A stretch of 64,000 nucleotides of DNA from Chloroflexota bacterium (GTDB lineage: Bacteria; Chloroflexota; UBA11872). Below the pieces are notes generated by a model. That model did no database searches and was not told the origin of the DNA. It worked only from the letters and a program-made list of their open reading frames with translations. Position 1 is the stretch's first letter. Each line of letters opens with the position of its first letter. Below are positions 24,248-27,652 of the stretch, piece after piece. A program made the position numbers and the translations under genes. The DNA is taken from the NCBI GenBank assembly GCA_965219705.1, contig OZ244789.1, positions 2,221,627-2,285,626 of the forward strand, written 5' to 3'.

Positions 24248-25977
24248 TGCCCTCGGCCATTCACATCACCGGCTCTACCCTCTCGGGAATTGAGCCCGCG
24301 GTCGGCTTTTGGAACTCCCGCCTCTACACCTTGGCCTACGGACGGCAGGATGATGGATCCGTTGCCATCGGCTCGCTGGAGCTACTGCAATCGCCAGAGG
24401 CCCTGACGCTGTTCAATACCAGTGACCCCGCCCGGCGCACCGGCAGTGCCGGCGAGGAAACCGCCGCCCAGATCGCCGCCGAAGTGCCCCACGAGAGCTT
24501 CGATCTTGTGATCATGAATCCGCCGTTTACCAAGAATACGAATAAAGAAGGAGCTTATGCCGGCACCTTTGCAGGGGCATTTGCCGCATTCAATTCCAGC
24601 AAAGCAGACCAACGAGACATGTCCAAGCGAATGTCAGTCTTAAGGAGACATACCTGCTACCACGGACACGCCGGTATGGGATCGGCATTTGCCGCCTTGG
24701 CGAACTTGAAGCTTAAGCCAGGTGGCATCCTAGCGTTGGTATTGCCGATGTCAGCCGCATCCGGCTATTCTTGGCAACGATTCCGCCAGATGCTAGCAAC
24801 CGGTTACTCAGAGCAACTTGTTCTGAGCATCGCTGCACACGGAGACGACATGTCATTTTCGGCAGATACCGGAATGGCTGACTGCCTGATCATTGCTCGG
24901 AAGAACAACATAGATAGCAAACATCACGGGCATTCGCGTTTTATATCGTTGCTTCGCCGCCCGCAGAGTTTTGCTCAAGCAAGCGTCATCGCAAGAGGCG
25001 CTTCCAATCTCGATGATCTACGGCAGATTGAAGATGGTCCGTATGGTGGGACACCAATAATGATTGGCAACCAATTGGTGGGAGAATGCATCGAGGTTTC
25101 CGGCGAGGCAAATGGAGATACCTGGGGCACGGTTCGCTTGCTGGACTATTCGTTGGCCCAGACCGCCTTTGCGCTAGGCCAGTCCAACTTGTGGTTACCG
25201 GGCAATGAAAACCCGGCGCCGCTGAGTGTGTCGCTACTTAGCGATCTCGGCGAGCTTGGTTATCACCATTTGGACATAACAGGATTACCATCGACAGGAC
25301 CGCCCCAAGGACCCTTCAGCAAGACGGCATACAGCCCGACCGCGACCTATCCATGCCTGTGGAATCACAACGCGAGGAACGAGACTCGGATGCTCTGCAC
25401 GCCAGACTCGCAGCTTGAAGTCAGGCGTGGAATGGAGGCCAAGGCTGCTTTGGTTTGGTCTACTGCAGGGCGCAGTCACCTGAATCTGGAGTTTACGTTT
25501 GGTTCACAACCGCTTGCTGTTTCGTTTACTGAGCAAGACACCATGGGTGGGCGTGTGTGGCCTAATGTGAATTTCCAGGACAAGCGAGCTGATTATGCTT
25601 TCGCTATATGGGGAAACTGCACTCTGGGGCTCTTGTCGTACTGGTGGCACGCAACTCGCCAACAGTCCAGCAAGGCCAACATCACGATCCGCTCTGCCGA
25701 ATCGCTGCCGGTTCTGGACTTTCGTACGTTCAGCGGGGAGCAACTGACGACCGCTGAGGCGATCTTCGAGGAATTCCGCGATAAGGAGTTTAAGCCGGCC
25801 TACCTCGCCGACGCCGATCCCAACCGCGCCCTGCTCGACGGCTACGTGATCTGCGACCTGCTCGGCTTCGACCAGACCATCTATGAAGGCGTCCGCCGCC
25901 TCTCCGCCAAATGGTGCGCGGAACCATCCGTCCACGGCGGCAAATCAAGGCCAAGCGGCAGCGATCTGATCTTCTAG
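24244..25977 (+). CDS. C-terminal part of the same N6-adenine methyltransferase, carrying motif IV NPPF and a compositionally foreign middle segment
   Basis: 577 aa. ESFDLVIMNPPFTKN (motif IV) about 90 aa from the start. Its reading frame is open upstream to 24157. GC drops sharply from about 24520 to about 25790. Confidence 0.6.
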   Translation: MMPSAIHITGSTLSGIEPAVGFWNSRLYTLAYGRQDDGSVAIGSLELLQSPEALTLFNTSDPARRTGSAGEETAAQIAAEVPHESFDLVIMNPPFTKNTNKEGAYAGTFAGAFAAFNSSKADQRDMSKRMSVLRRHTCYHGHAGMGSAFAALANLKLKPGGILALVLPMSAASGYSWQRFRQMLATGYSEQLVLSIAAHGDDMSFSADTGMADCLIIARKNNIDSKHHGHSRFISLLRRPQSFAQASVIARGASNLDDLRQIEDGPYGGTPIMIGNQLVGECIEVSGEANGDTWGTVRLLDYSLAQTAFALGQSNLWLPGNENPAPLSVSLLSDLGELGYHHLDITGLPSTGPPQGPFSKTAYSPTATYPCLWNHNARNETRMLCTPDSQLEVRRGMEAKAALVWSTAGRSHLNLEFTFGSQPLAVSFTEQDTMGGRVWPNVNFQDKRADYAFAIWGNCTLGLLSYWWHATRQQSSKANITIRSAESLPVLDFRTFSGEQLTTAEAIFEEFRDKEFKPAYLADADPNRALLDGYVICDLLGFDQTIYEGVRRLSAKWCAEPSVHGGKSRPSGSDLIF

Positions 25978-26023
25978 CCGGGAAAAGTACGAACAAGACA
26001 AGAAGACTCCAAAGGCGGTACGA

Positions 26024-27649
26024 ATGCCATCACTCTATCAGCAGCTTCAGCATCCGATGACCAAAGAAGTAAACGCACGCGATCGAGAACGACTTACTGC
26101 TATGTTTTCTGACTTGCAGTCTAGCACCGTAGAGCATTTTCTCTGCCTGCGACGCTATTTGGATTCAATACCCGAGAAGTTCTTCGATAAGCAGGCCTAC
26201 AAGATATATCTCGACTGGCTACAAAGACGGGCGGCAACCAAGCCAACGGAACTTGCTCGATACTTCGCCGATTCTAGCGCTGACATCGATCGTTCCTTCA
26301 TATTCCTTCGAGAGATCAACGCACGGGGGTGGCATAACGGCGCATTGGCCGATCAGGGCGACGGAAGCGATTACGATCAGCTCCAGGGCATCGACCGGCA
26401 GATTCATCCAAGTTATCTCCGACTAGTAGAGGCCGTCTTTACTCCGCTCACCAGGCCTATTGCATACTTTTCGCGAATCGATCGAAACAAAGGCACGGGC
26501 GGACTCGACACTTGGCAGATCGTCGAAGAGCTGAGAAGGCTTTCGCTACAGAGTCTCGCGGACCCATATGGACACACCATACGCAACGGTATCGGTCACG
26601 GCGGAATCACTTTCTCGCAGACTGAGATAATATATCAAGACAAGAGGGGCAATCGAGAAACGCACAATACTAGAGCGGTTGTCCGGTTGTTCGATGATCT
26701 CCTGGACACCTGCAATGCACTTGCCGCAGCGCTCAAAGTGTTCTTTCTAATCTCTCGGAACCAAGGATACGCATCACCACGTGAGCTTTTGATTGAGGAG
26801 TTGCAAGAGGAGACGAAATCCCCGTGGTGGACTATTGATGGATGCATAGAGTCACAGGTGTTGGGTAAGATTCAGCTGATTGTATACGCTCGGCCAAACT
26901 CGCGGCGCGAGGAAGTACTTCAATACTCGGCCTGTCAAACCGGATTACTTTCGGAATTCTTCGCTCCGGGATACAATAGATACTTGATTTTCTTTCAGTC
27001 GCATAAGAAAAAGCTTCAAGGATTGACTATTTTTGATGGCGACAAACTTCGTGCACTGCGCGCTGCCGGCGCCGAGTACCCGGCAAGCTACAAAGACGTA
27101 CTGGAATGGCATCTCATATTCAGTACGCGTTGGTCGTTGCCGAAGGTATTCGGAAAGGTCGACACCTATATCAGAGCACTTAAGGTTGCGGCACCAATGG
27201 CACTACAACAATTGAAGGATGCATTAGGCAGCGCAGACATTACGTGCAGGAATTCTTCGGTGCATCGCAATTCTTGGGGTTGTGTATTGCGTGCTGATAT
27301 TGTGATTAGTGGTCTCGATGATCGTGCTGCGATGAATCTGGTTCGCAAGAATCGGGGGCGAATTGTAAGATTGGCAAAGCGACATGCACGTCGCGAGAAT
27401 CGCTTGGCGTTGGCCGCGTATTTGCCGATCGGCTTCGCTCAGGTCAATGTGTTCAGACGCGACTATCGAGCCCGGCGCTTATCGAGTTTTGGTCTTGGTG
27501 ATGACTTAGTGTGCACCGTGAGGCGTCAACGGATACGTCGGATCAAGGCCCCAGATATTCTAAGATCGACGGTTGAAGTCATGGGCACATGGCGTATAGC
27601 TTGGAATGAGGCTTGGTTGAAAGCGATCGACGGGAATGAAAGTGCTTGA
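26024..27649 (+). CDS. hypothetical protein, 541 aa, low-GC (foreign) composition, no recognisable motifs
   Basis: Long clean ORF with markedly lower GC (about 48-50%) and different codon usage from surrounding genes. Arg-rich C-terminal 100 aa. Located immediately downstream of the split methyltransferase. Confidence 0.6.
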   Translation: MPSLYQQLQHPMTKEVNARDRERLTAMFSDLQSSTVEHFLCLRRYLDSIPEKFFDKQAYKIYLDWLQRRAATKPTELARYFADSSADIDRSFIFLREINARGWHNGALADQGDGSDYDQLQGIDRQIHPSYLRLVEAVFTPLTRPIAYFSRIDRNKGTGGLDTWQIVEELRRLSLQSLADPYGHTIRNGIGHGGITFSQTEIIYQDKRGNRETHNTRAVVRLFDDLLDTCNALAAALKVFFLISRNQGYASPRELLIEELQEETKSPWWTIDGCIESQVLGKIQLIVYARPNSRREEVLQYSACQTGLLSEFFAPGYNRYLIFFQSHKKKLQGLTIFDGDKLRALRAAGAEYPASYKDVLEWHLIFSTRWSLPKVFGKVDTYIRALKVAAPMALQQLKDALGSADITCRNSSVHRNSWGCVLRADIVISGLDDRAAMNLVRKNRGRIVRLAKRHARRENRLALAAYLPIGFAQVNVFRRDYRARRLSSFGLGDDLVCTVRRQRIRRIKAPDILRSTVEVMGTWRIAWNEAWLKAIDGNESA

Positions 27650-27652
27650 CCG

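Follow-up and report, generated by a model that had tools for sequence, protein, structure and literature searches.

We analyzed 64,000 nucleotides from a Chloroflexota bacterium (NCBI GenBank assembly GCA_965219705.1, contig OZ244789.1, positions 2,221,627 to 2,285,626 of the forward strand), hereafter called the window, and focused on a small islet located at 23.0-27.66 kb. This islet contains a restriction-modification (RM)-like methylase gene and a second open reading frame (ORF) coding for 541 residues, termed ORF541, both on the plus strand, and it is bordered by two minus-strand genes of native composition. On the left stands the gene of an AAC(3)-like aminoglycoside N-acetyltransferase (22044..22979; Pfam Antibiotic_NAT, E 1.7e-40; GC content 0.70), and on the right that of a xylose-isomerase-like TIM-barrel protein of 283 residues (27653..28504; Pfam AP_endonuc_2, E 8e-42). 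The methylase gene is preceded by a leader of about 113 nt (22953..23065) that travels with it, as homology to L004, a paralogous copy found at a different chromosomal site, spans 22953 to 25943. An earlier note on this DNA had described a single methyltransferase ORF, but there are really two of them, in different frames. The first (23066..24247; GC content at third codon positions, or GC3, of 0.77-0.93) encodes an endonuclease-like domain, a helical spacer and motif I (DFACGTGALL), and the second (24244..25977) encodes motif IV (NPPF, 24517-24528), motifs V-VIII, a putative target-recognition domain (TRD) and a conserved C-terminal region. Once the frame is repaired, the gene encodes a single 970-aa polypeptide. 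ORF541 (26024..27649) codes for an N-terminal HEPN-fold domain followed by C-terminal alpha/beta repeats. Its stop codon ends at 27649 and that of the convergent isomerase gene begins at 27653, leaving the gap of 3 nt to which the earlier note had drawn attention.

A large part of the islet departs from the composition of its surroundings. In 300-nt windows, the GC content is 0.48-0.57 across about 24450-27600 and 0.65-0.75 on either side, and at 1-kb resolution the values of this block are the lowest in the 64 kb. From 24514 to 27650 it amounts to 0.528 (52.8%), against about 67% elsewhere, which is the lowest of all 3137-nt windows (the minimum begins at 24490) and corresponds to z = -4.9 with respect to non-overlapping windows (mean 0.673, sd 0.030). 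The low-GC block that had been claimed is thus significantly different from the rest of the sequence. The sharp drop that had been noticed near 24520 was also found: GC3 is 0.77-0.93 in each 30-codon block up to 24513 and 0.37-0.80 from 24514 on. A two-breakpoint likelihood fit to the in-frame GC3 of the repaired gene places the low tract at codons 480-853 (nt ~24503-25624), with a GC3 of 0.56 inside and 0.84 outside (log-likelihood gain 46), and the 5' break, at codon 480, falls on the NPPF codons. ORF541 is low throughout, as had been said (GC 0.506, GC3 0.37-0.67).

On the other hand, the block, which had been taken as one foreign segment from 24500 to 27650, is low in GC but is not a unit. 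A rise to 0.62 at 25650-25949 is visible inside it in the 300-nt windows, and a native 3' arm interrupts it at 25701..25945 (GC3 0.73-0.90), ending in AEPSVHGGK. This arm separates the exchanged middle module of the methylase gene (24503..25700, codons from ~480 to 853 or 880; GC 0.537, GC3 0.56) from a variable cargo slot (25945..27652) that extends from the HGGK codons to the isomerase stop codon and houses ORF541. We consider it likely that the low-GC block is made of two exchangeable parts lying side by side in a small defence islet, rather than of one insertion.

The boundaries of these pieces become apparent upon comparison with a syntenic relative, L006. The latter displays the same neighbours, with Antibiotic_NAT upstream (as also in L007) and AP_endonuc_2, a thiamine pyrophosphate (TPP) enzyme, an AAA_27 protein and PhyH downstream, and its flanks are 89-90% identical to those of the window. 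Within the methylase gene, nucleotide identity to L006 is 80-93% over 22950-24500, 51-70% over 24550-25700 and again 87-89% over 25750-25950. Homology then stops at HGGK, about ten codons ahead of the methylase stop codon, and neither L006 nor L004 shows any homology to the window from 25943 to 27662, at the isomerase stop codon. The isomerase gene, which is the right neighbour in L001, L002 and L006 too, encodes a protein ending in DEFGAGSR in the window and in DELGAGG in L006. GC3 in the 5' arm, the middle and the tail is 0.81, 0.54 and 0.74 in L006, and 0.81, 0.52 and 0.72 in L004. The slot contents differ, since L006 has a low-GC ORF of 215 aa rich in Pro and Thr and L004 an ORF of 127 aa. 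The L006 ORF (12978-13625 in that sequence), whose Pro and Thr residues form a linker, lies where no gene had been called.

These data support the view that the low-GC middle has been swapped as a module between arms that look native. They do not support the recent precise insertion that the earlier note had suggested for this genome, as L001 and L006 have the gene, the two junctions and an occupant of low GC at the same site. The spacing of 3 nt, which had been read as a sign of insertion, results from a slot boundary that recurs at the stop codon of the isomerase gene. In the proposed comparison with relatives, the junctions shared with L006 speak against a recent insertion, and the divergent middle and the different cargo of L006 speak for a swap.

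The flanks of L004 match the window at 50017-59144 and 59971-64000, and L004 carries the paralogous methylase and the 127-aa ORF at that site. The window has there instead, at 59144-59971, a VapBC-like pair made of a VapC-like PIN ORF (59223-59672, minus strand) and an RHH-type antitoxin within 59612-60058 (minus strand). In view of this replacement, the interval is a second variable slot for defence or toxin-antitoxin genes.

The same mosaic was recovered for the present allele in L001 (ENA ERZ25072854), L002 (Logan ERR13602196) and L003 (ERR13605531), and for other alleles in L004/L005 and L006/L007. L002 and L003 are 100% identical to the window over 25803-30593. Compared with L001, the segment 23176-27576 is 99-100% identical except for a patch at 23959-24279, whereas the flanking genes are 88-94% identical (90-92% for the acetyltransferase gene). 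This tract of high identity starts just upstream of the methylase start codon and stops at the isomerase stop codon. The islet was thus shared recently and in full, with its high-GC arm, at a time when the mosaic already existed. The recent event is its spread as a whole (23.0-27.66 kb) between lineages that differ by about 7-8%, and not that of the low-GC block alone.

We then looked at the mosaicism across the family of the RM-like protein. The 5' part of the window protein is 85-96% identical to P0003, P0004 and P0008, but its residues 484-760 are only 37-64% identical to theirs. Among 121 aligned proteins, the pairs P0020/P0090, P0028/P0054 and P0081/P0120 have 5' arms 96-98% identical and middles 62-67% identical, and the converse is observed for the pair P0044/P0066 (middle 90%, arm 70%); in every one of these pairs the switch falls at residues 481-510. 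In bins of 30 residues, four independent pairs remain 90-100% identical up to residue 480, a few isolated bins excepted, then show 60-70% at 481-510 and regain identity near residues 840-900, while two converse pairs rise to 97-100% at bin 481-510. The left junction is thus a point at which crossovers recur, and it lies where the DNA of the gene is most conserved, in the stretch encoding FDLVIMNPPFT. The right junction is more diffuse. The earlier proposal of a TRD swap holds as far as module exchange is concerned but not in its extent, because the module starts at motif IV and takes with it the C-terminal half of the catalytic domain in addition to the presumed TRD.

The dip in GC3 is not restricted to the window either. 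In the 52 loci for which DNA was available, mean GC3 is 0.74 in the 5' arm, 0.63 in the middle and 0.74 in the tail (Wilcoxon p 4e-8 and 4e-7 for the middle versus the arms). The middle lies at least 0.10 below both arms in 22 of these 52 loci and at least 0.20 below in 8, and no dip is seen in L008, L016, L032 and L065. The pattern of the window is therefore typical of the family and not peculiar to its genome. RM genes in general tend to be of atypical composition. A search for a donor with the low-GC segment alone gave no new hit closer than 65%, and the best match to the middle module, apart from L001, is P0002 with 66-78%.

A parallel can be drawn with domain movement in Helicobacter pylori and TRD recombination in Type I hsdS genes. 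According to two publications, homologous recombination replaces specificity segments that lie between conserved sequences in these systems, giving rise to mosaic alleles (PMC3983042, PMC2853133). The replacement of a presumed specificity segment between conserved flanks is what we observe here too. However, in the present family the exchanged unit begins at the catalytic motif IV of a fused single-chain enzyme, a single sharp junction hot spot is common to more than 100 homologues, and the GC3 of the module is lower than that of both arms across many hosts. By analogy, the mosaic alleles of the RM-like gene would presumably provide new methylation specificities.

The RM-like family is large, conserved over its full length and essentially unannotated. 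Database sequences of about 965-990 aa that match 100% of the 970-aa length with 65-79% identity number in the thousands. At E <= 1e-30, a profile search returned 1,777 sequences, each of them representing one 50%-identity cluster. The named genomes are mainly metagenome-assembled genomes (MAGs) of Chloroflexota/Dehalococcoidia, and members also occur in MAGs of Rhodothermales, Acidobacteriota, Limisphaerales and Alphaproteobacteria; a single genome often has two or three paralogues. None of the sources gave a protein name to the members that were looked up. Pfam searches yielded sub-threshold matches to Eco57I, MTS and N6_Mtase only, with no match to the MmeI-family models even at E up to 10, and NCBIfam gave no match at all. 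Weak generic methyltransferase matches were the only result with PADLOC and PHROGs. A single-sequence search of the PDB was empty, and the profile search of the PDB was non-significant (DrdV, 7lo5, E 0.82).

Motif I precedes motif IV in the protein, as expected of gamma-class N6-adenine methyltransferases, and a methylase activity is thus predicted from its motifs. D43, E57 and E59 are invariant in the family and form a D...ExE arrangement, not D...ExK, which we take to resemble that of BamHI. The domains of the window protein span residues ~1-135, 135-300, 300-615, 620-850 and 850-970. These limits can be compared with those of MmeI, which consists of a nuclease (1-155), a spacer (156-300), a methyltransferase (301-620), a TRD (621-825) and C-terminal helices (826-919) (PMC4833311). 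The most variable segment of the family, residues 621-760 (median identity 50%), coincides with the position of the MmeI TRD, and by analogy residues 620-850 may constitute a TRD. The AlphaFold2 (AF2) model, computed with a 32-sequence alignment, is poor past residue 290 (mean predicted local distance difference test score, pLDDT, of 51.9), probably because this alignment is too shallow and its sequences too similar. The C-terminus is predicted to be helical, with pLDDT below 50.

Among known systems, the single-chain Type IIL/IIG enzymes such as MmeI, BpuSI and DrdV are the most alike. They share with the RM-like protein one chain of about 920-1000 aa with no separate S or R gene nearby. Their order of domains, in which a PD-(D/E)xK-type domain is followed by a helical spacer, then by a gamma-class N6-adenine methyltransferase, a TRD and C-terminal helices, is also that proposed for the RM-like protein, where the nuclease domain and the TRD are putative. 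Unlike them, the RM-like protein has neither an MmeI Pfam domain nor a significant PDB match, its triad is D...ExE and its motif IV is NPPF. The MmeI family is best known for changes of specificity by point substitutions within a shared TRD, whereas whole modules, half of the catalytic domain included, are exchanged here. By its sequence the protein lies outside the MmeI family, with whose TRDs the earlier note had proposed to align it and of which no Pfam domain was detected. It would, by analogy, work like a Type IIG/IIL single-chain RM enzyme. Type I, which that note had also named, is inapplicable to a single polypeptide: hsdM, hsdS and hsdR are absent as separate genes, and no adjacent S or R gene was seen in the window, L001, L004, L006 or L008. 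With regard to PglX/BrxX of bacteriophage exclusion (BREX) systems, no brxA, brxB, brxC, brxZ or brxL gene was found in the neighbourhoods inspected and the match was non-significant; PglX is a protein of about 1200 aa without an N-terminal nuclease-like domain. In the window as in its relatives, the RM-like gene is surrounded by genes of metabolism, toxin-antitoxin pairs or hypothetical genes.

The split of the gene in the window could be traced to one nucleotide. Reading across the frame junction gives MEEML followed by HGCDVMPSAIH. In L001 a further G stands at window position 24231, and the gene is intact and codes for a protein of 969 aa (P0001) that is 98% identical; the window copy therefore carries a 1-nt deletion (24231..24232), and its RM-like gene would be a pseudogene. 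This deletion lies in a divergent patch of 320 nt (23959..24279) which accounts for about 42 of the 68 differences between the gene and that of L001. Identity to L001 is 90.4% in 23951-24400 and 98.9-100% on both sides. No second copy that could have served as a conversion donor for 23959-24279 was found in the window. The patch could have arisen by gene conversion over a short tract, with a paralogue as donor, or be an artefact of strain mixing.

Disrupted copies are not rare in the family. In 53 representative loci, the gene is intact 42 times, full-length but interrupted by frameshifts or stops in about 7 cases and truncated in 4, three of these at contig ends. About one in six copies in representative genomes carries a frameshift or an in-frame stop. 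Disrupted copies were noted in L072 (4563-7458), L073 (4557-7467), L061, L058, L064, L021, L025, L038 and L057. For such copies gene callers report C-terminal fragments, beginning with MNPPF or MMEE, that resemble stand-alone cassettes, and the databases contain numerous proteins of about 485 or 583 aa that start exactly at MNPPF or MMEE. We considered whether silent, promoterless 3' donor cassettes exist in the family, and rejected the idea: in two loci (L072, L073) the missing 5' part lies directly upstream in the other frame, and these are therefore split pseudogenes.

The occupant of the cargo slot, ORF541, belongs to a small family of about 200 matches at 43-57% identity, found in Nitrospira, Pirellulales, Hydrogenedentes, Desulfuromonadales, Armatimonadetes and other hosts. 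It combines a four-helix fold with the conserved Rx4-6H motif of the HEPN superfamily, and its signature R-N-x-x-x-H (R187, N188 and H192, within RNGIGHG) is invariant. The C-terminal half is made of alpha/beta units weakly similar to ferredoxin-like C-terminal domains. A second invariant motif, R....HRNSWG (residues 408-419, window 27245-27280), falls outside the HEPN domain, in what is predicted to be a beta hairpin; it resembles an Rx4H motif, although its secondary structure is the wrong one. Sequence searches of Pfam, NCBIfam, PHROGs and the PDB gave no match to ORF541, and PADLOC a single non-significant one (E 0.032).

ORF541 homologues hold 47-52% GC irrespective of the GC content of the host and are solitary in varied island-like contexts. 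A genome scan found none within 6 kb of the methylase at any of 57 family loci. A functional pairing of the methylase with ORF541, which we had envisaged, was discarded in view of this lack of linkage and of the unrelated contexts of ORF541. No conserved small partner ORF was found beside ORF541 here or in L009-L014. The homologue in L009 adjoins a rhamnosidase/ABC cluster on another contig, similar to a cluster present at 37003-43450 of the window.

Several known HEPN proteins can be compared with ORF541. The toxin of HEPN-MNT systems is a protein of about 130 aa whose antitoxin, a minimal nucleotidyltransferase (MNT), is encoded by an adjacent gene. With 541 aa, ORF541 is about four times the size of that toxin, and neither an MNT gene nor another antitoxin gene adjoins it. 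In contrast to Csm6/Csx1, it is devoid of a CARF domain. It also differs from HEPN toxins and RNases, Abi-type HEPN proteins included, by its large C-terminal alpha/beta region and by the lack of any match to the PADLOC, Pfam, NCBIfam and PHROG models. On the basis of its sequence and distribution, we propose that ORF541 is a putative solitary HEPN RNase of the toxin or abortive-infection type that travels horizontally.

Taking these observations together, we think it probable that the islet lying between the acetyltransferase and isomerase genes results from the swap of a module, the use of a cargo slot and the spread of the islet. Its resident gene would encode a 970-aa single-chain RM-like enzyme in a high-GC genome, of which the conserved 5' arm, through motif IV NPPF, and the conserved 3' arm would serve as homology arms. 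The middle module, with motifs V-VIII and the presumed TRD, would be replaced by homologous recombination with alleles from a wider and more AT-rich pool, which would leave the middle low in GC3 between a 5' half and a tail of native type. A second slot, reaching from about ten codons before the methylase stop to the isomerase stop, would hold interchangeable cargo. In this lineage, the cargo would be the gene, of about 50% GC, of a HEPN-domain protein and putative RNase that shows no other linkage to the methylase family. Once assembled, the islet (23.0-27.66 kb) would have spread as one unit, and the RM-like gene would have been broken later in this genome.

One could also assume that no transfer took place and that the low GC3 arose in place, a fast-evolving module under diversifying selection drifting to AT. 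Having become too divergent to recombine, the module would escape the GC-biased gene conversion or the selection that keeps the arms GC-rich. This assumption would account for the dip being a family trait, seen in 22 of 52 loci with hosts of ~55% GC included, for the failure to find a close donor, and for the presence of the least conserved segment (residues 621-760) in the low-GC3 tract. However, gradual divergence cannot give the identity steps from 93-100% to about 60% within 30 residues that several independent pairs display, nor the reverse step. The GC3 change-point in the window is sharp, and ORF541, whose homologues have about 50% GC in any host, is left unexplained. We thus find drift in place rather unlikely to be the explanation, and it may contribute to the AT-shift of the module pool.

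The insertion of one foreign block of 3.15 kb, recently and precisely, into a native methyltransferase gene would agree with the sharp compositional edges at 24503-24514 and 27650, with a convergent gene only 3 nt away and with the similar GC of the two low-GC parts (0.54 and 0.51). Yet the native-type arm at 25701-25945 (GC3 0.73-0.90, 87-89% identical to L006) splits the block, L006 has the same two junctions with other contents and L001 the identical contents, the 5' junction recurs in unrelated members of the family, and ORF541 homologues are never linked to the RM-like family elsewhere. From the sequence of L006, this explanation appears largely refuted, and we hold it to be very improbable. 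Finally, a chimeric assembly of high-GC and lower-GC homologous genes joined at NPPF is hardly credible, even though both the source and its relatives come from metagenome assembly, no stretch of the gene is more conserved at the nucleotide level than the one that holds the junction, and a frameshift and a divergent patch are nearby, because the mosaic was recovered in independent samples and with independent assemblers (L001-L003, L004/L005, L006/L007), high-GC syntenic genes flank both sides and the pattern recurs in closed MAG chromosomes.

The proposal of a swapped module, a cargo slot and a spreading islet has nonetheless to face several points that weigh against it. As no donor was found, the external origin of the module is read from the pattern and not traced. 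The GC3 dip exists in hosts of ~55% GC as well (L025, L039), for which a simple lower-GC donor does not fully explain the data, and a region-specific mutational or recombinational bias could contribute. The TRD was assigned from its position and variability only, because the AF2 model is poor beyond residue 290. The acidic triad is arranged as D...ExE rather than as D...ExK, so that the nuclease activity expected of an RM enzyme of this kind is only putative. Lastly, the frameshift could be an assembly error; no homopolymer is present at its position, but it is located inside the divergent patch.

No recombinase gene, either integrase or transposase, is present within 22-28.7 kb. The repeats at the borders of the islet are short and at chance level, no terminator or promoter above chance was detected at its edges, and the nearest tRNA genes, at 5.3 and 13.9 kb, are separated from it by more than 9 kb. 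With no recombinase, no significant repeats and no nearby tRNA gene, the islet does not qualify as a site-specific integrative island. Its probable mechanism of transfer would be homologous recombination via conserved sequence inside or beside it.

The exchange of RM specificity modules and the turnover of cargo in defence islands are well known (PMC3983042, PMC2853133, PMC4833311), and none of our findings overturns existing ideas. What is new is the RM-like family, the sharp single junction at motif IV, the family-wide GC3 dip and the unannotated HEPN family. We would go further only tentatively, and with more doubt than belief: the ~970-aa family, with its ~1,800 clusters at 50% identity, might represent single-chain RM enzymes of an undescribed class, in which the half that sets specificity is a cassette shared by the community, and ORF541 a new single-gene HEPN abortive-infection system in the adjacent slot. 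If this were true, modules from a common AT-shifted pool would enter via one NPPF junction, and communities would share a stock of specificities.

For annotation, the intragenic GC break of this RM gene marks a module boundary and an adjoining cargo slot rather than one insertion. If the middle module sets the target, the mosaic alleles would be a natural series and a convenient scaffold for mapping and engineering specificity. The modules of lower GC3 found in 22 of 52 loci, among them loci of hosts that differ in GC, could provide a small test case for the evolution of genomes, in which transfer from a shared pool is set against GC bias linked to recombination. As for defence, the ORF541 family is a candidate defence or toxin gene without a model in the libraries searched.

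Some other features of the window deserve mention. The cluster at 37003-43450 (minus strand), which resembles the one adjoining the ORF541 homologue in L009, encodes a sugar ABC transporter, with two permeases and a solute-binding protein, and an alpha-L-rhamnosidase; with a GC content of 0.57-0.61 at 37-40 kb and 0.58 at 42-43 kb, it has the second-lowest composition in the window. A dip to 0.58-0.61 occurs at 30150-30750, between the TPP-enzyme gene and an SbcD-like Metallophos gene. The alignment with L001 is interrupted at 30283-30510, and identity is down to 81% over 30510-33492. Lastly, a eukaryote-like leucine-rich-repeat protein of 657 aa (Pfam LRR_1, LRR_8 and LRR_4) is encoded at 45003-46976 on the minus strand, where the local GC content is lowered to 0.62.

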